Shown: positions 694-58,073 of the stretch, piece after piece | Position numbering within the stretch: position 1 is the first letter of the stretch | Layout: each line of letters starts with the position of its first letter | Origin: an uncultured virus (IMG/VR IMGVR_UViG_3300016476_001224) | Taxonomy: Duplodnaviria; Heunggongvirae; Uroviricota; Caudoviricetes | IMG/VR virus record: IMGVR_UViG_3300016476_001224 | Reading direction: 5' to 3' (one strand) | DNA: 64,000 nt | Program-made: the position numbers and the translations under genes | The notes under the pieces: generated by a model | Seen by the model: only the letters and a program-made list of their open reading frames with translations | Told to the model about the DNA's origin: nothing | Database searches by the model: none

Positions 694-720
694 AAAAAGA
701 GAGCATTTGCTCTCTTTTTT
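694..720. terminator. Bidirectional intrinsic terminator
   Basis: aaaaaagagagc-attt-gctctcttttt between convergent genes. Confidence 0.8.
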
Positions 721-1352
721 TATTCTAATATTTGAGATAATTTTAAATCTCTTGCAAATGATATACCTGCAACACTTTTCATTATCTCAAACATTTCTTT
801 CTTCTTAAAGAAACCTTCAAATATGGTTTTAATACCATCAGAGTTTTGATAGAGGATCTTTACTTTTAAATTAGGTTGTAATCTACATATAAATTTTTCA
901 TCAATAAGTTCAATTAAATAGGATTGTTCAAATTCAGGACCAACATTAGTTATTGAAGGAGTAAATCCAATCTTTTTCAAGAATGATGTAACATAATCAT
1001 ATCTTTTATATCTACCTACTAATTTAGTTTCAGTATCATAATATGAAAATCTTGATGGTAAACCTCTAAAATCATCTTCTGTTCCTATATGGAAACAATC
1101 ATTATCATCTAATAATAGAGTTAATTTTTCATTTCTTGAAGTTTCAGTAGTTAAGTTATTATTGGTTTCAATTCTATTAGAAATCATATCATCAAATATA
1201 AAATATACTTTATTATTCTCTTGTGATAATCTATCACATTCATCAATAAGAGATTGTTTAATCTCTGAGTTTTTATAATTAAAGTCAATTGGTTCTAATA
1301 CTGGTCTTTCTGCAAAGGAAATAGTACCATCAGGGTTCATAACTATTTTCAT
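720..1352 (-). CDS. Hypothetical protein with internal and C-terminal RxxKLxxLL-type motifs
   Basis: 210 aa ORF; internal RNEKLTLLLD and C-terminal RDLKLSQILE. Confidence 0.75.
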   Translation of the reverse strand: MKIVMNPDGTISFAERPVLEPIDFNYKNSEIKQSLIDECDRLSQENNKVYFIFDDMISNRIETNNNLTTETSRNEKLTLLLDDNDCFHIGTEDDFRGLPSRFSYYDTETKLVGRYKRYDYVTSFLKKIGFTPSITNVGPEFEQSYLIELIDEKFICRLQPNLKVKILYQNSDGIKTIFEGFFKKKEMFEIMKSVAGISFARDLKLSQILE

Positions 1353-2304: not shown

Positions 2305-3834
2305 ATGTTAGTAGAAACAAGTTATTTAACTAATACCAAAAAATTGGTTTGTAGTTATGTTGATAAATCAGGAGATATAAAACTCAAGTACTATGACTGG
2401 GACACACCTATGAAATATGTATCTTGTGAAGATGATGATCCACAAAGACATGAAAAGTTTAGATCTTGGGATGGTAAATCAGTAAAACAAGTTGAAGTAA
2501 ACCACCCTGACAGATATGCCATTTATGAATTTTTGGATTCACTACCAGAAAAAGAAAAGGAAGAAATTTTTGAGTTCAACTTACCTAAGATATATTTTAT
2601 AGATATTGAAACTGAAATTGTAGATGGATTCCCAGAAGCTGCAGATATTAAAGATGCAGATGGTAATATCATTACAGAAGGAGCTGCTACAAAAGTACTT
2701 TCTATTTCTATTGTATATGATGATAAGATAATTCTTTTGGGTCTTAAAGACATGCCAGAAGATATGCAAGAAAGAATATGTAAAAACACTAATAAATACT
2801 TTGAGAAGTTTGGTACAGAATACAAACTAAAATATGTAAAGTATGAAGATGAGTTTGATATGTTGTATGCTTTCTTCAATAAAATGATTCCTAAAATGCC
2901 ATTATTAACAGGTTGGAACTTCTTAAACTATGACTGGTTATATTTAGTAAACAGAAGTAGAAAATTATCTAAATGGATGAATGGTAAAGAATGGAGAATT
3001 GACCCTGCAGTATCATCACCATTAAAAAGAATTAATAAAATGTGGGGTACAGACTTTGAAGTACCTGCACATAGAATGATTTTTGATTATATGCAGTTAT
3101 ATGAAATCTGTGATACTTCTATTAAAGTAAAAGAATCATCATCATTAGACTTTGTTTCCAGTAAACTTGTTGGTGTTGATAAGATTAAATATACTGGTTC
3201 ATTACAAAAATTATATGAGGATGACTTTGAAACCTTTATGTATTATAATGCGGTTGACTCTGTGTTAGTACAGAAAATACATGATGCAAGAAATTATATA
3301 TCAATTGTTTATGCAATCTCATCATTGGCACAAATTAGAATAGTAGATGTTGTTTCACAAATGAATGGTGCTTTAGCATCTTTAGCAATTACTGAGGGTG
3401 TTTTAAGAAACAGATTTAGAGATATGGATAACATTGTACTCTTTAAAGATGAAAGAGGTGATGGTGAATCTACAATTGCAGGTGGTTGGGTTAAAGATCC
3501 TGTTGTTGGTATGAACCAATGGGTAGTTGTTTATGACTTTGCTTCACTATATCCAACAACACAAAGACAATTCTTTATTTCACCAGAGAACTTTGTTGGT
3601 GTACAAAATCCAAATAATAAAGATTTTTGTGATAATGGAAGACCAATTGATAAAGAGAAACATGTTGTTTGTGTAAATGGTGTAGTATTTGAGAAAAGAT
3701 TATCACCAACTCTTAGGATGCTTGAAGATGTCTATGCAGACAGAAAATACAATAAAGGTATTATGATGAAAAAGAAAGATGAACTCAAAGCAGTAATGGA
3801 TGAGATAAAAGAATTAGAAGCTGAATTAGATTAA
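2305..3834 (+). CDS. polB: Family B DNA polymerase, N-terminal subunit of a split enzyme (3'-5' exonuclease plus motif A)
   Basis: ExoI DIETE, ExoII GWNFLNYD, ExoIII YNAVD, GGWVKDP and motif A YDFASLYP. Ends in a fingers helix with no motif B or motif C and is followed by a terminator. Confidence 0.9.
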   Translation: MLVETSYLTNTKKLVCSYVDKSGDIKLKYYDWDTPMKYVSCEDDDPQRHEKFRSWDGKSVKQVEVNHPDRYAIYEFLDSLPEKEKEEIFEFNLPKIYFIDIETEIVDGFPEAADIKDADGNIITEGAATKVLSISIVYDDKIILLGLKDMPEDMQERICKNTNKYFEKFGTEYKLKYVKYEDEFDMLYAFFNKMIPKMPLLTGWNFLNYDWLYLVNRSRKLSKWMNGKEWRIDPAVSSPLKRINKMWGTDFEVPAHRMIFDYMQLYEICDTSIKVKESSSLDFVSSKLVGVDKIKYTGSLQKLYEDDFETFMYYNAVDSVLVQKIHDARNYISIVYAISSLAQIRIVDVVSQMNGALASLAITEGVLRNRFRDMDNIVLFKDERGDGESTIAGGWVKDPVVGMNQWVVVYDFASLYPTTQRQFFISPENFVGVQNPNNKDFCDNGRPIDKEKHVVCVNGVVFEKRLSPTLRMLEDVYADRKYNKGIMMKKKDELKAVMDEIKELEAELD

Positions 3835-12645: not shown

Positions 12646-13695
12646 ATGTATTATATTTATGTTTATTTAGACACAAGAAAAAAAGGTTCATATTCATTTG
12701 GAGATTTCCATTTTGAATATGAACCTTTTTATGTTGGTAAAGGTGTCAATGATAGATACCTAACACACCTTAGGGTTGCTAAAGGTAGTAGAAAAGGAAA
12801 GAATAATTTAGCAATAACTAAAATCAAAAGTATTCTAAATGATGGGTTTGAACCAAAGATAATTAAGATAATTGAAGGATTAACAAAAGATAATTATAAT
12901 AACTATGAAATATCAACAATAAAATTAATTGGTAAATCTTGTGATGGATTGGGACCTCTATTAAATACAACTGATGGTGGTGATGGTGGAATAACTTGGA
13001 TTGGTGAACATCATAACAAGGGTAAAAAATTAGAAGAGATTGTAGGTGAAGAAAAAGCAAGTGAATTAAAACAAAAATTATCTGAACAAGCATCTAAAAG
13101 AGTTGGTGAATTAAACTCAAATTATGGTAATAAAGGTGAACTAAATCCTATATTTGGAACTAAAAGAAACCAAGAAACTATAGATAAAATAAGAAAGAAT
13201 ACATTAAAACAATTTTCAAATTATTCAGAAGAAGAAATAAATTTTATGATAGAAAGAATGAATAATGCTAGAAAAAATAAACCTGATGATGTTAAACAAG
13301 AATGGTATAATAAAATATCTAATACACTTAAAGAGAAATCAGAAAAAGGTGAATTGTTTACTGATGAACATAGACAAAAATTAAAAGATAATAATTATAA
13401 GAAATTAAATAAAGGAACTGATAAGTTAAAGTTAACAAAAGAACATAAACAAAAATTATCAGATAGTCTAAAAAATAGAGTATTTACATTAGAACATAGA
13501 GAGAAACTAAGAAAATGTATATCTTATGAAGAGTTTGAAATCATTATAGTTGATTTAGTACAAAAAGGAGTTATAAATACAATAACTGGATATAGAAAGT
13601 ATGCTAAAGATAATCCAGATTTGAAATATCCATTAAAACCAGAGAAATCATATAAGAATTGTGGTTGGTCTGATTGGAGAAAATATGGATTATAG
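12646..13695 (+). CDS. Free-standing GIY-YIG-type homing endonuclease with NUMOD3-like repeats
   Basis: YIYVYLD...FYVGKG..R, LLNTTDGGDG, repeated EH(R/K)QKL; lies next to nrdA. Confidence 0.75.
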   Translation: MYYIYVYLDTRKKGSYSFGDFHFEYEPFYVGKGVNDRYLTHLRVAKGSRKGKNNLAITKIKSILNDGFEPKIIKIIEGLTKDNYNNYEISTIKLIGKSCDGLGPLLNTTDGGDGGITWIGEHHNKGKKLEEIVGEEKASELKQKLSEQASKRVGELNSNYGNKGELNPIFGTKRNQETIDKIRKNTLKQFSNYSEEEINFMIERMNNARKNKPDDVKQEWYNKISNTLKEKSEKGELFTDEHRQKLKDNNYKKLNKGTDKLKLTKEHKQKLSDSLKNRVFTLEHREKLRKCISYEEFEIIIVDLVQKGVINTITGYRKYAKDNPDLKYPLKPEKSYKNCGWSDWRKYGL

Positions 13696-23494: not shown

Positions 23495-24184
23495 TTATTC
23501 TTCTAATTTTTCAAACCACCAGTTAAAGTAAATGTAATTATCACCAATTAAATTATATGTATCATTGTCATATCTTATTATAATTCTATCATTATGTGCT
23601 CTAACAACCTCTATAACAATTCCTTTTTCCATTTTTAATTGTTTACCAGTTTCAACTGAATAACAAGTAAGTTCATTATTTAATAATCTATACTCTCCAG
23701 GTTCTGGTTTTAACCAAGTTTTAATTGTTTTAGTAATCAATCCTGTAATCTTAATAATCCATTCTCTTGGTTGATATAAGTCTGCATCTTTAAATACCTC
23801 TGATGTTAACTCAGGATTTTGTCCCATTACATCTTCTAATTTACCCCAATACTCTTCTTCACCAATAACAAATGTTAAGTAAATGTCATAACCTAAAGTC
23901 TCAGATTTAACAATTCTTAATATCTTCATTGACTTAATATCTTGTTCTTCTAATGCTAATTTACTTCTAAGTGATCTATAAGCATTAGTTCCTTTAATGT
24001 TATACATAATGTCATTGATTCTAGACATTGCCTGTCTAATAGCATCCTGTGCTTTATCAAATGCATTTGTAGATAATGAAGGATCATCAACATGAGTAGA
24101 TGCTTGAACACTATCAGAGTTCATACGTTGCAAATTAAATTCTGATAGTTCAGTTATTAAATATTTAGACCTTTTATTTTTCAT
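23495..24184 (-). CDS. Hypothetical protein
   Basis: 229 aa ORF ending at hairpin aaaaaagagact..agtctcttttt (about 23467-23496). Confidence 0.7.
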   Translation of the reverse strand: MKNKRSKYLITELSEFNLQRMNSDSVQASTHVDDPSLSTNAFDKAQDAIRQAMSRINDIMYNIKGTNAYRSLRSKLALEEQDIKSMKILRIVKSETLGYDIYLTFVIGEEEYWGKLEDVMGQNPELTSEVFKDADLYQPREWIIKITGLITKTIKTWLKPEPGEYRLLNNELTCYSVETGKQLKMEKGIVIEVVRAHNDRIIIRYDNDTYNLIGDNYIYFNWWFEKLEE

Positions 24185-25079
24185 ATATCTGTTTAATTTT
24201 ATCTTCTATACATTCATTATATTTTATATTTATTAACTTAATATTCATTTTTTCACAGAATTCTTTTTTGATATTATCTCTTTTTTGTATGTTATTAAAC
24301 ATATTAACTCCACCAAAATACTCAATTGGTTCATAATGTTGTCTACCATTAAACTCTATACAAATATTATTATTTGGTAAGTAAAAGTCAAATTTAAGTT
24401 CTCTTATAAATTTACAATCTGTAAATTTATACTCTCTTATATAAGAAACATTATTATCTTTTAATATTTTTATTATATCTCTCTCACCTTTGGATATTTT
24501 ACATATAGGACACCCTACACCATATATATGAGAATGTGCAATTTGGTTAAAAACACCATGTTCTTTACAGATAATATCTAATCTACTATTCATATTATAA
24601 TAACTAACTAGTGAATAATCATATTTATTATTATGTATTATATTACATCTATTAATAAATTTTTTACTATCTATTTTAATACAATTAGGACAATCTTGTC
24701 CTTTTAAATGATTATTAGGAGTTTGTTCAAAAATACCGTGTTCTTTACAAATTATTTTAATATTATTTTTACTACCATTACAATCAACTAATGAATAATC
24801 ATACTTATTATTATGTATTTTAGAAGATTTCTCTATAAATTTTTCTGTATTTAACTTTGCATTCCCTTTACAATAAGGACAATCTTGTCCTCTTAAATGA
24901 TTATTAGGAGTTTGTTCAAAAATGCCATGTTCTTTACAAATTATTTTAACCTTAGTTTTATTATTGATATAGTTAACTAAAGAGTAATCATACAAAACAC
25001 CTCTAACTTCTAAACATTTTTTTAAAAATTTTTCTGTAGAAGATTTTTTGGTTATTCTTTTCATAATTAAACTTTTCAT
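24174..25079 (-). CDS. Putative homing endonuclease: repeated zinc-ribbon modules plus Vsr/PD-(D/E)XK-like nuclease
   Basis: Three YDYSLV...IICKEHG.F.Q....H..G..CP repeats; KFDFYLP...IEFNGRQHY. Confidence 0.75.
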   Translation of the reverse strand: MKSLIMKRITKKSSTEKFLKKCLEVRGVLYDYSLVNYINNKTKVKIICKEHGIFEQTPNNHLRGQDCPYCKGNAKLNTEKFIEKSSKIHNNKYDYSLVDCNGSKNNIKIICKEHGIFEQTPNNHLKGQDCPNCIKIDSKKFINRCNIIHNNKYDYSLVSYYNMNSRLDIICKEHGVFNQIAHSHIYGVGCPICKISKGERDIIKILKDNNVSYIREYKFTDCKFIRELKFDFYLPNNNICIEFNGRQHYEPIEYFGGVNMFNNIQKRDNIKKEFCEKMNIKLINIKYNECIEDKIKQIYEK

Positions 25080-25613: not shown

Positions 25614-25791
25614 TCCTGGTATAGTTTGGTTACCATATACAATACAAGCAATGGCTGCAACTTGGTCAGGAACTCCTAATTTAAGTAAGTCAATAACCAG
25701 TAGATATTCAATAGTAACAATTGAAACAAAAAATGAAATAAGAAAAAGAAAGATTAAAAATATATTAAAAGAAGAAAACCACTCAATTTGA
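25594..25791 (+). CDS. Mini-protein: major-capsid C-terminal-like fragment plus C-terminal tag
   Basis: GTG start; PGIVWLPY-x20-SRYSIV, then RKRKIKNIL. Confidence 0.6.
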   Translation: MKSSTNNPGIVWLPYTIQAMAATWSGTPNLSKSITSRYSIVTIETKNEIRKRKIKNILKEENHSI

Positions 25792-34016: not shown

Positions 34017-34187
34017 TTATGCTTTTGCCTCAGCAACAGAAGCAGCTCTATAAGGAGTTACTAATTTTTTGATTTCACCTAAAGCTTTACGAGCATCAGC
34101 ATCTGATTTTTTAGTTGTTTTAGCATGGTTAGCTTCAAAAGTAGCCCATAAAGCAGCTAATTGTTCAAAAATTTCTTGTTTGTTCAT
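34017..34187 (-). CDS. Histone H1-like (Hc1-family-like) small nucleoid protein, 56 aa, absent from ORF track
   Basis: MNKQEIFEQLAALWATFEANHAKTTKKSDADARKALGEIKKLVTPYRAASVAEAKA*; ARKAL.EIKKL...YR..S pattern. Confidence 0.7.
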   Translation of the reverse strand: MNKQEIFEQLAALWATFEANHAKTTKKSDADARKALGEIKKLVTPYRAASVAEAKA

Positions 34188-35595: not shown

Positions 35596-36318
35596 ATGAC
35601 AAGAACTGAATTTTTAGAAAAAGCTCATAATCAACATGGTTACAAATACAAGTACATAGATTTATCTGATAAAATAATATTATCTGATAAAATAATTATT
35701 GAGTATAATGGTATTCAATATGAACAAAGAGTTTCTAAACATTTAATGGGGAAATGTCCTGAGAAAACTACACCTACAAAGACTACAGAACAATTTATAA
35801 AAGAATCTATAGAGGTTTGGGGTAATAAATATGATTATAGTTTAACTGAATATAAAGGTGCATTAGTTGATGTTAAAATTATTTATGATGGTATAGTTTA
35901 TTTACAAAGACCTACTTCTCATTTAAAAGGTATGGCACCTGAGTTTAGAAGAACTGAGGAATCAATAATTAATGATGAGATGAGAAAAAGTGATTTATTT
36001 GGTGAAACAGAAATACATAACTTTTTGAGAAAATACAAAATACAATTTAAAGAAAGATATAGATTAGGTGAGGTTACTTTTGATTTTTATTTACCAAGTC
36101 TTAGAGTTTGTATAGAGTTTGATGGTAGACAACATTTTGAACCTATTGAGAAGTTTGGTGGTGTTACAACATATGAACGTATTAAATCAAATGATAAGAC
36201 TAAAAATGAATATTGTGAAGAACATTATATTGAATTAATAAGAATAAAGTATGATAAGATTGATGATATTTATAGAACACTATGGGATAGTTTAGCACAT
36301 AAAATAAAAAAGACCTAA
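35596..36318 (+). CDS. Putative homing endonuclease (Vsr/PD-(D/E)XK-like)
   Basis: KYDYSLTEY module; FDFYLPSLRVCIEFDGRQHF; related to 24174..25079. Confidence 0.7.
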   Translation: MTRTEFLEKAHNQHGYKYKYIDLSDKIILSDKIIIEYNGIQYEQRVSKHLMGKCPEKTTPTKTTEQFIKESIEVWGNKYDYSLTEYKGALVDVKIIYDGIVYLQRPTSHLKGMAPEFRRTEESIINDEMRKSDLFGETEIHNFLRKYKIQFKERYRLGEVTFDFYLPSLRVCIEFDGRQHFEPIEKFGGVTTYERIKSNDKTKNEYCEEHYIELIRIKYDKIDDIYRTLWDSLAHKIKKT

Positions 36319-37168: not shown

Positions 37169-37759
37169 ATGAACATTTGGTTTACATCTGATACACACTA
37201 TCATCATGCTGGAATTTCTGGTCCTGAATTGTCTAAATGGAAGTCTGGTTATAGAACTTTCAAAACAGTTGCAGAAATGAACCTATGTTTGATAGAAACT
37301 ATCAACAAATATGTAAAAGAAGATGATATACTTTATCATCTTGGTGACTTTTCTTTTGGTTCACCTCAAAAAATGTATGAGTTCAGAAAATCATTAGTAT
37401 GTAAAACTATACACTTGATAAAAGGAAACCATGATGAAATTTTTGATGAATTTCATGCTGAGAAAAGAGCAAGATTATCATTTGATCCATTTGAACTATT
37501 TGCAAGTGTTAGAGATACTTATACTGGTTACATTGGTAAAAACAAATTCCACTTATCTCACTATGCACATAGAGTTTGGCCAAGTTCACACAAAGGTGTT
37601 ATTCACCTTTATGGACACTCTCATGGTAGTATTTCAGATTATGGTAAATCAATGGATGTTGGTATAGATGCACACAAAGAGTTTAGACCTTTCCATATCA
37701 ATGAAATATTACAGATTATGGAAAAAAGAGAAATTGTTAAAGTTGATCACCATGTCTGA
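37169..37759 (+). CDS. Calcineurin-like metallophosphoesterase
   Basis: FTSDTH, HLGDF, KGNHD, SHY, YGHSH, DVGID; TATCTTTG at 37142-37149. Confidence 0.9.
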   Translation: MNIWFTSDTHYHHAGISGPELSKWKSGYRTFKTVAEMNLCLIETINKYVKEDDILYHLGDFSFGSPQKMYEFRKSLVCKTIHLIKGNHDEIFDEFHAEKRARLSFDPFELFASVRDTYTGYIGKNKFHLSHYAHRVWPSSHKGVIHLYGHSHGSISDYGKSMDVGIDAHKEFRPFHINEILQIMEKREIVKVDHHV

Positions 37760-37937
37760 TTTGAAATTAGAAATATCTAAGTTAAAACTCTTAATAAATG
37801 CTAAATATGGTGCATATGGTAATAAAAAAGATACTATGTATTATGAACTATTAAGAAAGAGGAAAAAGATTACTGGTATGCTTTTGAAGATAGAGAATAG
37901 AAAGAGAAAAATAGAAAAACTACTATGCAAAATATAG
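37752..37937 (+). CDS. Mini-protein: PolB motif-B-like fragment plus C-terminal tag
   Basis: MSDLKLEISKLKLLINAKYGAYGNKKDTMYYEL...RKRKIEKLL; start overlaps the upstream stop. Confidence 0.6.
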   Translation: MSDLKLEISKLKLLINAKYGAYGNKKDTMYYELLRKRKKITGMLLKIENRKRKIEKLLCKI

Positions 37938-38248
37938 AAGATAGATTTGAAATGGGTACCTGTGTTGTTTGTATAAAAGAATATGAAACACTAAAAGTTA
38001 GAAGTCACTACAACATAAAAGGTTGTGGTGACTTGACTTGGAATGCTGCCACTGATAAAGAAGGTTATGGATTTTGTGTTGAAGATGAATTTGCATCCAA
38101 TAAAAAAGATTGGTGGAACCTTGCCTATTCAGAAAGAGTTAAATGGTATTACTTTACAGAGGAAGAAATGAATGAATATTTTATTACACAAGAAGAGGAC
38201 TTTATAATATATTCAAGAGATCAAAAATTAAAAGAATTAGGTATATGA
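37925..38248 (+). CDS. Hypothetical protein with C-terminal tag
   Basis: Ends RDQKLKELGI. Confidence 0.75.
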   Translation: MQNIEDRFEMGTCVVCIKEYETLKVRSHYNIKGCGDLTWNAATDKEGYGFCVEDEFASNKKDWWNLAYSERVKWYYFTEEEMNEYFITQEEDFIIYSRDQKLKELGI

Positions 38249-38688
38249 ATACAAATGAATTAAGAGAATTACTTAATGAAGTTTTCTTTGAAGATAAATA
38301 TGAGATTACTGAAACTGATTACACAAAATATGATGAAGATTTAGTAAGATTTAATGTAAAAGTTTATTCAAAGAAAATGAATAAACATATGACAATGATT
38401 GTAATACATAATTATATAATAGGTACAACAATATGTAAAGATCTTTGGATAATGGATTGGTCTCTACCTAATCAAAATTACTATATGAGAATACCTGGAA
38501 CAAGTTATAAAAGAAATACTAAAGATGTTGGTGATCCAAAATACTTTTTAATGTTATCAAAAGATAAGATGAATGATATTTTACTCATAAATGAATTAAA
38601 TAATAATTTAATTAGTGATATGAGAGAAATGGATAAAAACCCTATGACTATGACAAGAGACTATAAATTAAAAAACTTAGGAATATGA
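38245..38688 (+). CDS. Hypothetical protein with C-terminal tag
   Basis: Ends RDYKLKNLGI. Confidence 0.75.
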   Translation: MNTNELRELLNEVFFEDKYEITETDYTKYDEDLVRFNVKVYSKKMNKHMTMIVIHNYIIGTTICKDLWIMDWSLPNQNYYMRIPGTSYKRNTKDVGDPKYFLMLSKDKMNDILLINELNNNLISDMREMDKNPMTMTRDYKLKNLGI

Positions 38689-39302
38689 TAGATATATTTG
38701 GAAATGAACCTATTAGGTTAGATAGATTAGTATGTCATTCTGGTGGTGCAGAAGGTTCTGACACATATTGGGAAACCATAGGTGCTAATTATGGTGTGAA
38801 AACTAAAGCATATTCATATAAGACAAAATATCACACATCTGAAAACAAAGTAGAAATTAGTGATACTGATTATGAAGAAGGTGTAAAAGAAATAACTAAA
38901 GCAAACAGAACATTAAATAGATATGGTATTCATAAGTTTATGAACTTACTTGCAAGAAATTGGACTCAAATAAAATACTCTGATGAAGTATTTGCAATAG
39001 GAACTATAGTAGAACCAGGTAAAAAAGGTTCTAAAGGGTTTTATAATAAATCAGAGTTTCAAGTAGTAGATGGTGGAACTGGTTATGCAGTTCAAATGGC
39101 AATAAATAATGGTAGGTTTGTTTATGTATTTGACCAGGATAAAGACAAATGGTTTAGATGGTCACATACATCATTAAGGTTTATTGAAGTCACAAAACCT
39201 CTTAAAATAAGTTATGAGAACTTTGCAGGAATTGGCACAAGAGAGATTAAACCTAATGGAATAAAAGCAATAGAAGAAGTATATAAAATAACATTTAATT
39301 AA
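38685..39302 (+). CDS. SLOG-superfamily-like nucleotide-binding protein
   Basis: CHSGGAEGSD, LARN, GGTGYAV, FAGIGTR. Confidence 0.6.
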   Translation: MIDIFGNEPIRLDRLVCHSGGAEGSDTYWETIGANYGVKTKAYSYKTKYHTSENKVEISDTDYEEGVKEITKANRTLNRYGIHKFMNLLARNWTQIKYSDEVFAIGTIVEPGKKGSKGFYNKSEFQVVDGGTGYAVQMAINNGRFVYVFDQDKDKWFRWSHTSLRFIEVTKPLKISYENFAGIGTREIKPNGIKAIEEVYKITFN

Positions 39303-39306
39303 AAAC

Positions 39307-39702
39307 ATGGAAAAAGATACAATTATAGTTGAAATGACACCTTTCTTATTTGAGGATGGTAAAACTTATTATTTTGATATTAGAAAAGGTTATAGTAATA
39401 CATATCACTATTTATTTGTTTATAAAAAAGTTGAAATTACAACAGAAAGAAAAACTTGGTTTGGTCTTGGTAAAACTGAAACAAAAGTAACAACTGAATA
39501 TCAGTGTATAAATAAGAATAATGGTGCTTTAGTAAATATAAACTTAAATACAAGAGAAGTTAAAAGTGAAATAAAAAATGTCATTGTTGCCAATCAAGCA
39601 GTTACTAAGATAAAAGATTGGGATGGATTTGTTGGTGATATACCAACAGATGCAAAAATGGCTTTATTAAGGGATTCAAAGTTAAATGATTTAGGTATAT
39701 AA
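39307..39702 (+). CDS. Hypothetical protein with C-terminal tag
   Basis: Ends RDSKLNDLGI. Confidence 0.75.
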   Translation: MEKDTIIVEMTPFLFEDGKTYYFDIRKGYSNTYHYLFVYKKVEITTERKTWFGLGKTETKVTTEYQCINKNNGALVNINLNTREVKSEIKNVIVANQAVTKIKDWDGFVGDIPTDAKMALLRDSKLNDLGI

Positions 39703-44604: not shown

Positions 44605-45243
44605 ATGGCATTATATAATAAATTCAGATACATATTCCCACCTCGTCCAAAGAATGCAATTCCTTCGGACGAGTTATCTTTTTGGGATAATAACTCATTA
44701 TTAGCACAACCAAAACTTAATGGTTCCAATACTACTATTTATACAAATGGTGAGAAACATATTGTAATGAATAGACACAACCAAAGACTTACCAATTTTA
44801 GAATTACTGATACTGAAATTACATCTATGTATAGAGGTAATGGTGAGTGGATGGTAATCAATGGTGAGTATATGAACAAATCTCAGAATGATGAAACTGG
44901 TAAACCATTTAATCACAAGTTTGTTATTTTTGATATTCTTGTACTTGAGGGTAACTATTTAGTAGGAACTACTTTTGAACAAAGAGTTGCAATTTTAAAT
45001 GACTTGTATGGTCAAGTAGATTGTGAGAAAGAACATTTGTATGGTATCTCTGAAAATATCTATAGAGTAAAATCATATAGTGGTAATTTCTTAGAATTAT
45101 ATAATGATTTGATTAAAATTGATATGTATGAAGGTTTAGTTATGAAAAGGAAAAATGCTAAGTTAGAATTAGGTACATCAGAGAATAATAATACTAAATC
45201 ACAAATTAAGGTTAGACGAATTACAAAAAACTACAAATACTAA
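44605..45243 (+). CDS. Minimal ATP-dependent ligase-family adenylation domain
   Basis: Motif I AQPKLNG, NGEY, IFDIL, EGLVMKR, IKVR; TATCTTTG at 44582-44589. Confidence 0.75.
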   Translation: MALYNKFRYIFPPRPKNAIPSDELSFWDNNSLLAQPKLNGSNTTIYTNGEKHIVMNRHNQRLTNFRITDTEITSMYRGNGEWMVINGEYMNKSQNDETGKPFNHKFVIFDILVLEGNYLVGTTFEQRVAILNDLYGQVDCEKEHLYGISENIYRVKSYSGNFLELYNDLIKIDMYEGLVMKRKNAKLELGTSENNNTKSQIKVRRITKNYKY

Positions 45244-45294: not shown

Positions 45295-46332
45295 ATGAAA
45301 TTACCTAGTAATTATTGGACAAAAGAAAGGTGTCAAGAAGAGGCGTCAAAGTATAAAAGTCCTAATGAATTGAAAAATAATAATGATTATGTTTATGTAA
45401 AATGTTTCAAATATAAATGGTTAGAGGAATTCTACAAAAACTTTGAAATTAAAAGAGATATTTATTGGACTAAGGAAAGATGTCAAGAAGAAGCATTAAA
45501 ATACAATAATAGAAATGAATTTAGAATTAATTCAAAATCATCTTACACTATTTCACTGAGAAATAAATGGTTAGATGATATATGTTTACATATGATAAAA
45601 AAACCTTCTTCATTTTGGACTAAGGAAAGATGTCAAGAAGAAGCATTAAAATATAAAACAAGAACTGACTTCAAAAATAAATCATATCAAGCATATAAAT
45701 ATTCAAGAATAAATTGTTGGTTTGATGATATATGTTCACATATGCCAATTATTGGTAATATGTATAAAAGATGTATATATTCATTTGAATTTGAAGACAA
45801 TTATGTTTATATTGGTCTGACATATAATATAGATAAAAGAAGTGAAGGTCACTATACCAATATAAGTAGTCAAGTAAATAAACATATTAAAAATACAAAT
45901 CTACTACCTAAATTAACAAAATTAAGTGATTATATTGATGTTGAACTTGCCAAAATAAAGGAAGGAGAATATGTTAAATTATATAAAGATAATGGTTGGA
46001 ATATATTAAATATTCAAAAAACAGGTAATACTGGTGGTATAAGAAAAATAACAGAAGATAAATGTAGAGAGGTAGTTGAAAAATACACATCACTTTCTAT
46101 ATTTAGAAAAGAACAACCTAATATCTATAAAAATATAATTAGATATGATTGGAAACATTTACTCAAAGGTCTTAGTAGAAATACTAAAGAAAGTGGTTAT
46201 TGGACAAAAGAGAAGTGTCAGGAAACTGCATTAAAATACTCACGTAGAATAGACTTTTTCAAAAATGATATTAGTGCATACAATAAAGCACAAAAAAATG
46301 GTTGGTTAGATGAAATATGTTCACATTGTTAA
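45295..46332 (+). CDS. GIY-YIG homing endonuclease with WTKE(R/K)CQE repeats
   Basis: CIYSFEF...VYIGLT....R..H, E and LN; four W-T-K-E-x-C-Q-E repeats. Confidence 0.75.
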   Translation: MKLPSNYWTKERCQEEASKYKSPNELKNNNDYVYVKCFKYKWLEEFYKNFEIKRDIYWTKERCQEEALKYNNRNEFRINSKSSYTISLRNKWLDDICLHMIKKPSSFWTKERCQEEALKYKTRTDFKNKSYQAYKYSRINCWFDDICSHMPIIGNMYKRCIYSFEFEDNYVYIGLTYNIDKRSEGHYTNISSQVNKHIKNTNLLPKLTKLSDYIDVELAKIKEGEYVKLYKDNGWNILNIQKTGNTGGIRKITEDKCREVVEKYTSLSIFRKEQPNIYKNIIRYDWKHLLKGLSRNTKESGYWTKEKCQETALKYSRRIDFFKNDISAYNKAQKNGWLDEICSHC

Positions 46333-52352: not shown

Positions 52353-55300
52353 ATGTGGATATTTAACAAAGATTATAACAAATGGGTTATAACAGAGGAT
52401 CAATTAGCTAAAAGTAATTTTGATTACCTAAAACAAGAACTTGTATCAACAAGATACTACTCAAAGTGTCTTAGTGGTGCTACTTATCTACCAATTAACA
52501 ATGTAGATAATATCTATGATATTTTAGGTGAATATGAAACAAGAAACTGGTACATAGATAGTTCAGGTTCTCAATATTCATATACTGCAATTCCACAAAA
52601 TGCAAGTCCTATCAATGGAATAACTTCAAATAATTACTATACTAAGTATTTATCTGAATATGGTTTGACATTGAAAAACTTATTTACCCCAGATAGACTA
52701 ATAAAGGATTCTATTAATTATTTATATGTTGATGTTGCAACAATAGAAGAAATAAATTTAAGTTCTAAATATACTAATCTTATTATTGATGGTGTTAAAT
52801 TACTTAATGGTCATAGAGTTTTAGTAAAAGATCAAATTTCAACTGAAACTTTACCATTTGATACTGATCCAAATACTTACTTTAAGGGTAATTATACTTT
52901 AGTACAAGACTATGGTGCTACAATAGAATATAGTTACTACAATTCTGAGAATGGTATTTATGTATTTAACAATGGTTACTTAACAAAGACTGATGATTTG
53001 TCTTTATATGAAGATTGTATAAGATATAGTGTTTCAGTTAAATTAGGAACTATAAATACACAAAAACAATTTCATTTAAGTAGATTATTAAATGGATATT
53101 ATCCTACATCATCTTTGAATGAACCTGTTGAGTTTAAAGAAAAACATAATTGGTTATTAAGAAATAGAGTAGATTATAACAATTTATTTGAGATTAACTA
53201 TTATGATGTTTTAAAACATGGTTCACAAACTTATACTATTAATTCAACTACTTATAGTATTCCTGAAAGAACTATTGCAGTTGGTGAATTTGGTGTTATA
53301 TTAAATACACAAGGTGGTATTTCAAATATAATTCCTAATAAATATAAAGTTAATTTAAGAAGTATTACTCAAACAGAACTATACTACTGGATTTGTGGAG
53401 ATGATGGAACTTTATTAAAAGTTAGAAAACATGATTTTACTATAGAAAAGATTGAACTTAATATTATAAAGAATTTAAAATCTGTATCATTCTTTAATAA
53501 CTTAAAAGGTGTTGTAGTTGGTGAATTAAATACAATATTAATAACAAATGATGGTGGTTTAAATTGGAATAGTATAATTGTAGATGATTTTGAATCTTAT
53601 TACTATAATAAAGTTCTTTTCCTTACACAAGATAAAATCTATATTATTGGTAATACTGGAGTATTTATTGAATTAGAGGAAGATATTTCTGGATGGTCAG
53701 CATATAAAAGAAGAATATCTAAATTTATAGATGATTATGAAGAGTATTTATTAGTTGATAATATCAATGATATTATTTATACTAATATTAATTGGCATCT
53801 TTCATATAACTATGGTACACAATCTATTACTGACCAAAAAGAACTACTATTATTAGTAACTGATAATGGTAAAGTAATTGCAAATGACTTAAATTCTACA
53901 ACTAAGTTTGATTTCCTTTATTTAGAATTTCAAACACAATATGGTAATATTAATAATATTATACAGCAAGGGACATCAAGTATTTTTTACTTTTCTGGAG
54001 ATAATGGAATATTAAAATTTGATATTACTAATTTTAACACAATTGGAGATAATATTTATTCTAATAAAATATCAGGCCCTGATGCAGCAAATTTAAGTGA
54101 ATTGTCTGTAAATAGATTATTTGATTACAATTCTAATGATTTATTAATATGTGGTAATACATCTCTATTACAAACATCTACTTATAGTACTCCTTTAAAC
54201 TTTAATATATTAGATTCTACTTTTGAATCAAGATTAAAATCTAAGATGTTATTTGTTGATTATGATGTTGCAAGTAAGTTAAACTTTTTTACTGATGCAG
54301 GTGATTATAGACTACCAAGTTCAACATCATTTAATTTAGTAACTTCATCAGATGATATTACTTATTCAAATAATCATTATTATCTTATGAATCCTAATAT
54401 TAGTGGAAACTTAATATCAACTATAAATGTTGATAGTCAAAGTGTTAATCCTAACAATATTGAGGTTACAATTAATCTATCTAATCCAGTAGGGATAAGT
54501 CATTTATTGGTTAATTTAAGATCACCAAATGGTAATGTAATAAATTTGAAAAGAGTAAATTCAGGAACAGGAACAACACTTGCAAATGTAACATTTTCAA
54601 CATCAACAGAGTATAATTACTTTAGAAATTCTTTAGCTCCTTATACTAGTCATACTTATCAAATGGATAAGATATTATCATTTAATCAATTTGCAAGATT
54701 TGCAATTTTAGAAAATGTTGAACCTGAATTTTTTAATTTTGGTTACAATGCAAATACAAATAACTTAGTAGATTTATTAGATGAGAATGGTGGATTTTAT
54801 GGTAATTGGGAATTATATATTGAATGGACTTCTATTAGTATATTTAGTAGGCCTAGTTTACCAATTACTTATCCAAATGGTACACTAATGGGTTGGGATT
54901 TAACATTTGTTTATTCAAGACCAAATGAAATAGATTTGAATTGTTTATCATTTGAACCTTTAGTTTATGGTCCAACTGCACCAAGTTTTATGACACAATC
55001 AGAAACTAACTGGTTAACATATTGGAAAGATAGACAAAAGACATTTGAATATTATTCTGTTAATCCAGCAGATAAAAATAGTAAAGTTGAAATATCAACA
55101 GACTTTTGTAAAGCAGTTTCTTCTACAAGATATATCTATTCAATAACTAATCAATTGTCAGACATATCAAGATTAGCACCTTCTTTAGTAGATTTAACAT
55201 CTAATAGATTTATTGGTGGTTCAGTTAGTATTTCATCACCTAATCAATTATATGATATTTATTTCTATGGTTACTTAATGATAGTTAGAGTTGATAGAAA

Positions 55301-58073
55301 TTATCCTGTTAAAGTAGGTGATGTAATTAGCTTAACAAGTTCAGTTGTTGATAGTCAGTTTGTAGTTAATAGAGTTGAAACATTGCGTAACCCAACACAT
55401 TTAGGACCTATTTTAAGACAAATAAATCTTGTAAGTAAGTATTTATATATGTATATGGATTTTAATGATAATATCATTACTGAATTGATGAGAACTCAGG
55501 ATCCTATTACTATTACAAACCTAAATAAGTTTACTGATTTAGATGAATTAAGTAATAAATTTAATACACATCCAATATCACATGGTTATGAATTAACATA
55601 TGTAGATAATACAATTACTATAGATAGTAAATTCAACAACATAACATCTTATTATAATTTAGCAACTCAAGTAATTGCCAATGGTGTTGATAATGCTGGT
55701 TTACCTTTAACAATAACAAATGAAATGGTATATACTGATGGATTTTTAAAATTTGGATATACACCAACTTATAATCTATTAGATTATTTAGAAGGACTAA
55801 ATGATACTACAAACCTAGCAACTGCTAAATTTAGAGCAGATAAAGAGTATTATGCAATGCCACATTACAAAGCTATTCCTTTAGAAGGTTCATTAAGTGG
55901 CAACTCATCTGGTCTTTACTTTAATTATAATGGTATTTTTGGTACAAATAGTTCAAATCAAAAACCAAGTAATATATTACAATTTGGTTCAGATTTAAAA
56001 TTAGAATGGGAAAGTATATTCTTAAATACATTTGTTGATATAGTAATGTATTCTGATTCTGATTACTATAATCCTACCAATGGTTCAACATTTAGCACTG
56101 AAAGGTTGTTAGTAACAAAGAAATACTATAATAGTACATATGATACTTATGATATTGAGTTTGGAAAAAGTATAAATTTCCCTATTGGTAGTCAACCTAG
56201 ATTTATTGATATTTTATCAAGAAGAACATTATTACAAATAAGTGAGGATTTACAAGAATTAAATAATATTCAAAGACCAAGATTTGTAAATAAATCAATT
56301 ATTGATAATAATGATAACAACTTCTATAATTATGATAGAACTACAAGTTATAAAATATCTACTGATTCATACACTAAGATTTTATTATCAGATGTTGATA
56401 CAATTAAAGAATTAACTGCAGTTATTTATACTGATTATAAGAATGAATTAGCAATGAATATAACAAGACTTGCTAGAGAATATAATATTAAGATAGCTGA
56501 TACAGATTCATATAATGGTAATTTACTTATTATATGTGGTGAAAAACATGAATTGAAAAATGGAGATGGTGTTGTATTAGAATTTAATGGTGGTACTTAT
56601 TCTTCACAAGTATTAAATCAACAATACTTTGGTTATCATACTGTCAATGTTGTTGATGACTATAAAGTATGGATAGATATTGATTATGTTAATAACACTA
56701 TTGTTAATGATACAGGATATTTGAAATACACTAAGAGTGATCCTTTCTTTAATTATCAACCAGTTGATATAATTGATGTAGGTGTTAATAAAAAAGGTAA
56801 AATTGCAATAGAATTGAATATTGACAATTTAAAATTAACTAATGATGTTTATAGTTTAGTTAATGTAGATTACAACAAATATAGATTTAGATTAATTGAT
56901 GGATTAAACATTGAAACATTATCACTTAAATATCCTTGGATATTAGAAGCAGAGGTTTCTGGTGCCTTATTAGGACTTGACACAAATGGTTTAGTTTGGT
57001 ATAAAGGTTATTGGGAATGTGGTAGATGGTTTGGTGGTACTTGGATATCAGGTACTTGGAAGTCAGGAGACTGGTATGCTGGTATATGGAATTCTAAAAA
57101 GATAACAGATAATTTAATATCAGTTGAAGTAGATAATAGTGTATCAGATACTATACAATCAACTTGGTTTGGTGGTAGATGGTATGATGGTACTTGGAAT
57201 AATGGTACTTGGGTAGATGGTAGATGGTATGGTGGTACTTGGAATGCAGGTGACTGGTATAAAGGTATATGGAATGATGGTACTTGGAATAATGGTATTT
57301 TCTCAGGTGGTGTTTGGGTACTTGGTACCTGGAATGGTGGTGTATTTAATTGTGATAATGAACCTTCTTACTGGATTGATGGTAAGTGGAATGGTGGTGA
57401 CTTTGAAAATGGTATTTGGTATAATGGTATTTTTGAAGAGAAAAATTCACTTTCAAGATTTGGAACAAAAGCTTACAATAGTAGAACTGCAAATTGGAAA
57501 TCTGGTAAATGGTTAAGTGGTAGTTTCTATTCAAGATTAATTACAGATAATAGTGGAGTTCCAGTAACTTCAATATCTCATAAATATTCAATTTGGAAAA
57601 CAGGTATTTGGTATACAGGTGATTGGTATGGTGGTATTTCATATAATATGGATTTTCAATCAGGAAACTGGTATGGTGGTATATTAGAAGATATACAAAT
57701 TATTGGCATTTCCTATAATACTTCTAATCCTGTGGATAGTTATATTACACTAAATGGTGAGTTTGAGTTTAATATTAGTGATGATATACATATTTTAAAT
57801 ACATTTGGAACTACAAGTAGTATTGAAGGTAAATATGAACTTATAAAATGTAAAACAGATACTATAAATAAGAAAACTAAACTTTATATTAGTATTCCTG
57901 ATGGCTATAATACATCTAATGATGATAATGAAACAGGATTAAGAGTAGTTAGTAGATTTAGAAGTGCCAATTGGAAATCAGGTATTTGGACTAATGGTAT
58001 CTATGAAACTGGACTTTGGGAAGGTGGTATTTGGTATAATGGTTTATTCAAAGATGGTGCAAATTGGATGTAA
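52353..58073 (+). CDS. Very large multidomain virion protein (beta-propeller, P-domain-like region, GxWxx repeats)
   Basis: RVLVKDQ..ENGIYV, BNR/Ycf48-like VGE.G.I..T.DGG.NW repeats, LLVNLRSPNG..GNWEL, many GxWxx repeats at about 56990-58070. Confidence 0.7.
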   Translation: MWIFNKDYNKWVITEDQLAKSNFDYLKQELVSTRYYSKCLSGATYLPINNVDNIYDILGEYETRNWYIDSSGSQYSYTAIPQNASPINGITSNNYYTKYLSEYGLTLKNLFTPDRLIKDSINYLYVDVATIEEINLSSKYTNLIIDGVKLLNGHRVLVKDQISTETLPFDTDPNTYFKGNYTLVQDYGATIEYSYYNSENGIYVFNNGYLTKTDDLSLYEDCIRYSVSVKLGTINTQKQFHLSRLLNGYYPTSSLNEPVEFKEKHNWLLRNRVDYNNLFEINYYDVLKHGSQTYTINSTTYSIPERTIAVGEFGVILNTQGGISNIIPNKYKVNLRSITQTELYYWICGDDGTLLKVRKHDFTIEKIELNIIKNLKSVSFFNNLKGVVVGELNTILITNDGGLNWNSIIVDDFESYYYNKVLFLTQDKIYIIGNTGVFIELEEDISGWSAYKRRISKFIDDYEEYLLVDNINDIIYTNINWHLSYNYGTQSITDQKELLLLVTDNGKVIANDLNSTTKFDFLYLEFQTQYGNINNIIQQGTSSIFYFSGDNGILKFDITNFNTIGDNIYSNKISGPDAANLSELSVNRLFDYNSNDLLICGNTSLLQTSTYSTPLNFNILDSTFESRLKSKMLFVDYDVASKLNFFTDAGDYRLPSSTSFNLVTSSDDITYSNNHYYLMNPNISGNLISTINVDSQSVNPNNIEVTINLSNPVGISHLLVNLRSPNGNVINLKRVNSGTGTTLANVTFSTSTEYNYFRNSLAPYTSHTYQMDKILSFNQFARFAILENVEPEFFNFGYNANTNNLVDLLDENGGFYGNWELYIEWTSISIFSRPSLPITYPNGTLMGWDLTFVYSRPNEIDLNCLSFEPLVYGPTAPSFMTQSETNWLTYWKDRQKTFEYYSVNPADKNSKVEISTDFCKAVSSTRYIYSITNQLSDISRLAPSLVDLTSNRFIGGSVSISSPNQLYDIYFYGYLMIVRVDRNYPVKVGDVISLTSSVVDSQFVVNRVETLRNPTHLGPILRQINLVSKYLYMYMDFNDNIITELMRTQDPITITNLNKFTDLDELSNKFNTHPISHGYELTYVDNTITIDSKFNNITSYYNLATQVIANGVDNAGLPLTITNEMVYTDGFLKFGYTPTYNLLDYLEGLNDTTNLATAKFRADKEYYAMPHYKAIPLEGSLSGNSSGLYFNYNGIFGTNSSNQKPSNILQFGSDLKLEWESIFLNTFVDIVMYSDSDYYNPTNGSTFSTERLLVTKKYYNSTYDTYDIEFGKSINFPIGSQPRFIDILSRRTLLQISEDLQELNNIQRPRFVNKSIIDNNDNNFYNYDRTTSYKISTDSYTKILLSDVDTIKELTAVIYTDYKNELAMNITRLAREYNIKIADTDSYNGNLLIICGEKHELKNGDGVVLEFNGGTYSSQVLNQQYFGYHTVNVVDDYKVWIDIDYVNNTIVNDTGYLKYTKSDPFFNYQPVDIIDVGVNKKGKIAIELNIDNLKLTNDVYSLVNVDYNKYRFRLIDGLNIETLSLKYPWILEAEVSGALLGLDTNGLVWYKGYWECGRWFGGTWISGTWKSGDWYAGIWNSKKITDNLISVEVDNSVSDTIQSTWFGGRWYDGTWNNGTWVDGRWYGGTWNAGDWYKGIWNDGTWNNGIFSGGVWVLGTWNGGVFNCDNEPSYWIDGKWNGGDFENGIWYNGIFEEKNSLSRFGTKAYNSRTANWKSGKWLSGSFYSRLITDNSGVPVTSISHKYSIWKTGIWYTGDWYGGISYNMDFQSGNWYGGILEDIQIIGISYNTSNPVDSYITLNGEFEFNISDDIHILNTFGTTSSIEGKYELIKCKTDTINKKTKLYISIPDGYNTSNDDNETGLRVVSRFRSANWKSGIWTNGIYETGLWEGGIWYNGLFKDGANWM

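Follow-up and report, generated by a model that had tools for sequence, protein, structure and literature searches.

Why would a huge phage whose family B DNA polymerase (PolB) is encoded in two separate pieces also carry a 61-residue protein with a helix that resembles the fingers motif of such enzymes? The question is raised by a small ORF in a 64 kb stretch of DNA from an uncultured phage (the window), which has a G+C content of 27% and contains phage replication and structural genes. These include a lysozyme-like ORF, the N-terminal part of PolB, DinG-like and DnaB-like helicases, methylases, a RecA-like protein, PhoH and a class I ribonucleotide reductase followed by a GIY-YIG endonuclease. 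The closest records are those of the uncultured huge phages LR745206.1 (634,780 bp) and LR756502.1 (642,428 bp), with 82–85% amino-acid identity in the PolB N-terminal subunit (PolB-N). More distant matches are found in other phages of 0.46–0.74 Mb and in the Lak phages, and the genomes of the clade measure about 0.4–0.7 Mb.

Several other genes of the window were recorded. Free-standing homing-endonuclease-like genes are located at 12646..13695 (+), 45295..46332 (+), 35596..36318 (+) and 24174..25079 (-). The set comprises one GIY-YIG gene right behind the ribonucleotide reductase large subunit, one GIY-YIG gene behind a short ligase-like ORF with an adenylation domain only (44605..45243), a DUF559 or “HNH endonuclease” PHROG gene resembling Flavobacterium phage genes, and a DUF4379 zinc-finger ORF. 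A 56-aa ORF at 34020..34187 (-) matches the histone H1-like Hc1 family (PF07432, E 1.6e-5, above the family cut-off), and a 1,906-aa ORF at 52353..58073 (+) has no Pfam match at E ≤ 0.01.

The product of the small ORF is MSDLKLEISKLKLLINAKYGAYGNKKDTMYYELLRKRKKITGMLLKIENRKRKIEKLLCKI, which contains the pattern K-LLIN-A-K-YG, and the coordinates of this and related features are collected in the table. The ATG overlaps the stop of the phosphoesterase ORF by 8 nt, and the stop codon overlaps the start of the following 107-aa ORF by 13 nt. The protein is very basic. The AlphaFold2 model, computed with the family alignment, contains a helix at residues 2–19, a loop and a second helix at residues 28–59 (mean pLDDT 87.1, pTM 0.65); the small protein is thus predicted to be a two-helix hairpin, with helix 1 ending at Y19-G20. 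When this model was compared with the PDB by Foldseek, there was no match at E ≤ 0.001, and the search in the ESM Atlas yielded no usable feature match, only generic helical hairpins being returned in both cases. The six-frame translation of the window contains a single K...N[SAG].YG, where 0.035 would be expected, and 7 of 200 mononucleotide shuffles of the same DNA contain at least one. Taken alone, this single occurrence is modest evidence.

Positions of the small ORF, its parts and the related features (window coordinates unless another record is named)
Feature	Position	Strand	Basis
61-aa mini-protein ORF	37752..37937 (stop included)	+	ORF translation; homologues share its start Met
PolB motif-B-like segment K12-L-L-I-N16-A-K-Y19-G20, end of helix 1	37785..37811	+	alignment, hhalign, PHROG
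C-terminal tag R50-K-R-K53-I54-E-K-L57-L58 (R-x-x-K-[IL]-x-x-[IL])	37899..37925	+	alignment, pattern in window ORFs
Present/absent module, 181 nt versus 5 nt (ATAAG) in natural deletion forms	37756..37936		DNA contigs, IMG/VR loci
Calcineurin-like phosphoesterase, directly 5' of the small ORF	37169..37759	+	PF00149 E 1.5e-8; phrog_547 E 5e-47
107-aa ORF ending in the tag (RDQKLKELGI)	37925..38248	+	ORF list, tag pattern
Tag-ending ORFs	720..1352 (-), 25651..25791 (+), 37925..38248 (+), 38245..38688 (+), 39307..39702 (+)	as given	R-x-x-K-[LI]-x-x-[LI]-[GL]
PolB N-terminal subunit, PolB-N (exonuclease, motif A, fingers helix N), 509 aa, ends inside the fingers	2305..3834	+	PF03104; PF00136 profile 20-151/453; RB69 alignment
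49-aa motif A fragment ORF	L010 1486..1635 = LR756502.1 523495-523641	+	PDB profile matches, tag
PolB-C C-termini compared with the tag	L005 442..1866, L004 442..1866, L082 676..1713	-	tail spacing
Interrupted polB-C	L085 (G003:366150-366760); L100-L145, first 240 nt of match	minus (L085)	hairpin insert

The decisive argument for the motif being real is its conservation among homologous sequences. Using the phosphoesterase as an anchor, 59 IMG/VR loci of 6.5 kb each were scanned by a six-frame regular expression. K...N..YG was found in 14 of them and nowhere else within those loci, and all 14 matches belong to an ORF of 54–67 aa directly 3' of the phosphoesterase. A 52-aa ORF occupies the equivalent place behind the phosphoesterase of LR745206.1, which extends the synteny of the two genes to this genome. 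A phmmer search of 1.84 billion protein representatives yielded five small relatives of 33–77 aa. The resulting alignment of 15 sequences, which are 21–89% identical to the window protein, contains six columns that are invariant in 15/15 (K12, N16, Y19, G20, R50 and K53), whereas M1, L4 and I54 are near-invariant (I54 is kept in at least 90%), and position 17 is occupied by S in 12 sequences and by A in three. An earlier note on this DNA had described a 61-aa ORF with a motif-B-like helix and had made its case dependent on the conservation of KxxxNxxYG; the sequence is as quoted there, and the pattern is kept by every aligned homologue.

Pairwise dN/dS values for the small ORF are 0.24, 0.45, 0.18, 0.18, 0.28, 0.20, 0.37 and 0.29, with a ninth pair at 0.89, and the ORF is under purifying selection. 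These comparisons establish it as a genuine accessory gene with the look of a translated one, belonging to a clade of huge AT-rich phages from freshwater and wastewater. In the one metatranscriptome run (X20), analysed as contigs like all other runs, no contig covers the ORF, a result that does not bear on expression. One database protein of 77 aa (P0002) agrees with the window protein over residues 1–28, a stretch that extends through the motif, and continues with an unrelated tail, which suggests a modular exchange behind the motif helix. Members of the family are found on dozens of contigs of up to 656 kb and are named just “hypothetical protein” in public sources; this is a conserved small-protein family not described before. 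A tblastn search with the 61 residues against 50,697 phage records gave no match at E ≤ 10, and a profile search for longer, fused forms gave none at E ≤ 1 among 7,999 candidates, the latter being weak evidence.

Regarding the nature of the motif, K12, N16, Y19 and G20 correspond to the four residues that define PolB motif B (K-x3-N-S-x-Y-G), with S or A at position 17 in all members. As described for RB69 gp43, an incoming nucleotide has its triphosphate coordinated by K560 and N564, the former serving also as proton donor; Y567 probes the newly formed base pair from the minor groove, and G568 is among the crucial residues of the nucleotide-binding site; the four residues are placed on fingers helix P, facing R482 and K486 of helix N (PMC3564110). 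The small protein shares with helix P of RB69/T4 gp43 the spacing of K, N, S/A, Y and G at the C-terminal end of a helix, but it is a stand-alone protein of 61 aa without exonuclease domain, motif A, motif C or thumb. Positions 12–27 of the family profile align to gp43 residues 560–578. In the PDB profile search, 16 of the 21 weak matches are family B DNA polymerase chains (E 0.3–3.8, not significant), 13 of which align at residues 560–578 and the other three at the equivalent motif in their own numbering.

Searches against protein families point in the same direction for part of the alignment. At E ≤ 0.01 the window protein matches a single PHROG, the “DNA polymerase” family phrog_1252 (residues 8–45, E 0.0015), and a second polymerase PHROG is matched at E 0.021. 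DNA-polymerase PHROGs are matched by rows 1–5 of the alignment, which form the window-like subfamily, whereas rows 6–15 match no polymerase PHROG; the PHROG families matched by at least two members are three, all of them DNA polymerases. PF03175 is weakly matched by two members (E 0.004), and PF00136 is not matched by any of the 15 at E ≤ 10. In a single-sequence search of the PDB with the window protein, none of the seven matches is a polymerase. The similarity to polymerases is restricted to the motif region, and neither motif A (D-x2-S-L-Y-P), motif C (Y-G-D-T-D-S) nor an exonuclease domain is present in the 61 residues; together with the missing PF00136 match, this led us to reject the small protein as a family B DNA polymerase in its own right.

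The significance of an isolated motif B depends on how the clade builds its polymerase. The alignment of PolB-N to RB69 gp43 366–492 covers motif A and fingers helix N; another 19 residues of PolB-N follow before its end, so that, as had been noted earlier, the polB ORF starting at 2305 stops before motif B (PF00136 profile positions 20–151 of 453). The 120 relatives listed for this subunit measure 508–543 aa (117 of them 508–513 aa) and are 81–96% identical, and the seven that were inspected all end at ...DEIKxLEAEL. Since the relatives share this length and this end, the split is ancestral to the clade. The second subunit, PolB-C, is encoded in LR745206.1 and LR756502.1 by a separate 474-aa gene about 100 kb from the PolB-N gene. 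It begins with about 34 helical residues followed by KLVLNGSYG and then by YGDTDS, and PolB-C of relatives can be aligned with the corresponding motifs, B and C, of an archaeal PolB whose structure is solved. These alignments place the split between fingers helix N, at the end of PolB-N, and helix P, at the start of PolB-C.

No C-terminal PolB subunit was found within the 64 kb window, which contains no motif B or C beyond the small ORF. The description of this genome as one without motif B was nevertheless misleading: because PolB-C of relatives carries KLVLNGSYG together with YGDTDS, the polymerase of this genome type has a motif B of its own. As that subunit has its own motifs B and C, the small protein is not the missing one. 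With hhalign, the family and the N-terminal 75 residues of the clade PolB-C align over 21 columns at motif B with 43% identity (P 1e-4, probability 57%). The clade's own motifs are DFASLYPT and NGSYG; the motif of the small ORF, of the N-S type, is nearer to canonical PolB than the N-G type (NGSYG) of the clade's own PolB-C. Given this canonical N-S motif, the small protein may mimic or derive from another polymerase.

In many IMG/VR relatives the PolB-C gene is interrupted at or inside motif B by GC-rich perfect hairpins of 30–46 nt, mostly after a stop codon. Three insertion sites were observed (QLAL/KLV, KLV/LNG and NGSY/GAF, with the stroke at the insert). Most of the inserts shift the frame, and at two of the three sites the codons flanking the gap encode an equal residue (CTT..CTA, GCT..GCA, GTT..GTA). 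From their sequence, these stop-plus-hairpin inserts look like a bypass of the T4 gene-60 type. In one interrupted gene a 291-aa ORF lies directly upstream. The 64 kb window contains no GC-rich hairpins.

The second half of the small protein carries the C-terminal tag to which, according to the earlier note, the motif helix is fused. This holds: R50, K53, I54 and L57 fit R-x-x-K-[IL]-x-x-[IL], RKRKIEKLL being residues 50–58 of 61, followed by three residues (CKI), and the same pattern ends five other ORFs of the window, including both downstream neighbours. Examples among these are RDQKLKELGI, RDYKLKNLGI, RDSKLNDLGI, RDLKLSQILE and RKRKIKNIL. Weak matches of the family profile elsewhere in relatives fall on the tag part only. 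We considered helix 2 as a mimic of fingers helix N (R-x3-K), and rejected it on the spacing, which is R-x2-K, and on the presence of the tag at the end of unrelated proteins. The tails of PolB-C (…RRLSVVMDIFGGFK and similar) have an R / hydrophobic i+4 / hydrophobic i+7 / F i+8 spacing as in the tag, without its invariant K. A role of the tag as a sliding-clamp tail was also considered, but PolB-C tails (RLSVVMDIFGG) share only the R and hydrophobic spacing, and neither LR745206.1 nor LR756502.1 contains a match to PF02916, the family of T4-type clamps. As a lead from these tails, the reader of the tag might be a partner of the polymerase tail.

The body to which the tag is attached is in this case no orphan and contains a recognisable polymerase motif. 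A second tagged fragment of this kind is present in LR756502.1, where residues 6–33 of a 49-aa ORF align to motif A and its flanks (archaeal PolB 398–425; best PDB E 0.0015). The best 60 of its 84 PDB matches are all polymerase chains, and its tail, RIAKIKRIL, is the tag as found in the small protein. This ORF is a singleton in the databases searched. Both mini-ORFs, with motif B and with motif A, are nearer to canonical PolB motifs than those of the clade itself. Among the other small intergenic ORFs of the window, no enzyme fragment was found in the 16 scanned of 26 listed.

Although conserved where it occurs, the small ORF is not a constant feature of the locus. Taking as close loci the 22 whose phosphoesterase is at least 57% identical to that of the window, the ORF is present in 14 and absent from eight, and the latter include three at 92–95% identity where the 107-aa gene begins in direct overlap with the phosphoesterase stop. 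The deletion gap is also seen in the IMG/VR loci L017, L020 and L021, and LR756502.1 and G003 lack the ORF as well. In two runs of environmental DNA from different studies (X3 and X5), contigs join position 37755 to 37937 with five other letters (ATAAG) between them, while a third environmental run contains the small ORF without a difference. In the ORF-less form the 107-aa gene starts at the ATG that here opens the small ORF; the module is therefore a clean cassette, supplying the neighbouring gene with a substitute start. Downstream, a 205-aa ORF at 38685..39302 (+), DprA-like by its match to phrog_768 (E 8e-12), is kept in all relatives and provides a synteny anchor.

The presence of the ORF was compared with the state of polB-C. 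The ORF accompanies an intact motif B in LR745206.1 and L023/L110, and an interrupted one in L024/L111 and L025/L116; it is absent with an intact motif B in LR756502.1 and with an interrupted one in G003. A compensation for interrupted motifs was rejected, there being no correlation in these six genomes. The small ORF is dispensable, an optional gene, and it is not present wherever the polymerase is present, as would be expected of an obligate PolB subunit.

We favour, with a probability of about 40%, the reading that the small protein is a tagged surrogate of fingers helix P which docks on the orphan half-fingers of PolB-N. The mini-protein would derive from a polB fragment and act in trans as a stand-in for helix P, docking on the orphan helix N and palm. 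To our knowledge, the only partner of a helix P is helix N plus palm, and PolB-N is favoured as the partner because this site is not covalently occupied in the free subunit. The docked mini-protein would compete with PolB-C, as a regulator or a dominant-negative; alternatively, it would hang an address tag on PolB-N and thus serve as an adaptor. It would in any case be an optional modulator and not a core subunit. Pairing with the fingers helix of the split subunit, as a regulator or a decoy, had been put forward in the earlier note and stays putative. In favour of the reading are the conservation of the motif, its similarity to PolB motif B, the division of the polymerase between helices N and P, the stable assembly of split subunits in PhiKZ, the predicted end of helix 1 at Y19-G20 and the tagged motif A fragment of LR756502.1. 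Several observations speak against it, among them the lack of polymerases among the single-sequence PDB matches, the non-significant E-values of the PDB profile matches, the missing PF00136 match, the failure of rows 6–15 to match a polymerase PHROG and the pair with a dN/dS of 0.89. The invariant residues face the nucleotide and are not obviously those of the face that packs on helix N; the motif, compared at the sequence level, is foreign in type to the clade's own polymerase (N-S versus N-G); and the presence of the ORF does not track the state of polB-C in the six genomes.

Among the other explanations, an essential role as a third polymerase subunit, from which an enzyme devoid of motif B would obtain it, might be suggested by the lack of this motif in the PolB-N of the window and by the hairpin inserts in motif B of some relatives. 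It is, however, highly improbable: LR745206.1 has both an intact PolB-C motif B and the small ORF, G003 has an interrupted motif B and no small ORF, and the ORF is missing from 8/22 close loci and from LR756502.1. Absence in close loci, together with the failure to track polB-C, is what excludes the essential role. Chance or convergence, by which K, N, Y and G would serve another structure in a tagged helical-hairpin protein unrelated to polymerases, is quite unlikely in our estimate. The motif is short, the polymerase E-values are weak (at best 0.0015 for PHROGs and at least 0.3 for the PDB), the single sequence matches no polymerase in the PDB, Foldseek and the ESM Atlas yield generic helical hairpins only, and some look-alikes are expected when very many windows are surveyed. 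Yet each of the four residues that are invariant in the N-terminal half belongs to the motif, with S/A at the fifth position, hhalign gives P 1e-4 against the clade's own PolB-C, and the three PHROG families matched by at least two members are all DNA polymerases. Moreover, it is precisely at this helix that the PolB of the clade is divided, and the same tag is attached to a motif A fragment of 28 residues.

A polymerase origin without a polymerase function is possible, if doubtful. A polB fragment would have been moved by homing-endonuclease and hairpin cassettes targeting motif B, captured in a slot for tagged small genes and kept for a job unrelated to the polymerase, for instance as a basic nucleic-acid- or nucleotide-binding accessory delivered by the tag. 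The three hairpin sites at or inside motif B in polB-C of many relatives, with GC-rich inserts of 30–46 nt, and the 291-aa ORF directly upstream in one interrupted gene are in line with such traffic, as are the very basic character of the protein, the canonical N-S motif where the clade's own is N-G-S, the retention of the first 28 residues with a different tail in P0002, and the singleton status of the tagged motif A fragment in LR756502.1. Neither an endonuclease gene nor a hairpin adjoins the small ORF, though, the nearest such gene being that at 35596..36318 and the window having no GC-rich hairpin; furthermore, without a polymerase context one would hardly expect just the four residues of the catalytic face to be invariant. 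A conflict weapon or decoy, in which a dominant-negative helix poisons the split polymerase of a co-infecting relative or distracts a host or phage factor that recognises motif B, seems unlikely. An accessory gene that is polymorphic even where its neighbours are 92–95% identical, with both forms found in natural DNA runs, would suit this role, and competition by a free helix requires that helices P and N are not covalently linked, which is the case in the whole clade; on the other hand, seven sequences compared by eye reveal no obvious difference in helix N of PolB-N between genomes that have the ORF and those that lack it.

Returning to docking on PolB-N, a broader version can be formulated, which we regard as doubtful. 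The clade would produce tagged miniatures of single PolB catalytic elements, namely of helix P in the window and at least 14 further contigs and of the motif A strand-helix in the case of LR756502.1. These would fit in trans into the active site that the PolB-N/PolB-C split leaves half open, and would either route PolB-N to the tag reader or disable the polymerase of a co-infecting relative. If true, this would be a phage microprotein system acting on a replicase, a kind so far undescribed. Should helix 1 dock on PolB-N, the small protein would be the first natural one to copy a polymerase active-site helix in order to act on a split replicase, and it would be the first cargo of the tag with a predictable partner, providing a handle for finding the tag reader. 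Gene fragments, these results suggest, could find new uses as regulators or weapons. On a cautious reading, too, the ORF stands for a conserved family of small proteins, so far undescribed, in abundant phages of freshwater and wastewater. A literature search, with incomplete coverage of subscription journals, retrieved no description of a stand-alone motif B mini-protein.

Two-gene family B polymerases are known from other phages, another one being gp43A/B of a T4-like Aeromonas phage. As in the clade described here, the PhiKZ polymerase is encoded by two genes, DNAP-N and DNAP-C, whose products must assemble, and these subunits form a stable 1:1 enzyme (PMC13648687). According to the same account, the PhiKZ split is located within a palm insertion, in contrast to the position between fingers helices N and P found here, with the genes about 100 kb apart, and the available text mentions no extra helix-P mini-protein (PMC13648687). 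The inserts in motif B of the relatives' polB-C resemble the coding gaps of the T4 gene 60 / mobA bypass cassette, as far as this is set out in the available text (bioRxiv 10.1101/2022.08.31.505936). Unlike that cassette, the small ORF has no hairpin, stop, gap or adjoining endonuclease gene. By analogy, the gene-60-like inserts offer a route by which polB fragments could be mobilised.

A further comparison is provided by the microProteins of eukaryotes. These consist of a single small domain resembling one interaction module of a larger protein, and their regulatory effect is dominant-negative. Known microProteins copy dimerisation domains of transcription factors; the small protein, a putative binder, instead copies a helix of a catalytic site and joins it to an address tag. 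If docking on PolB-N holds, the logic of the two would match, the small protein being likewise a small, optional and regulatory copy of one module of an enzyme.
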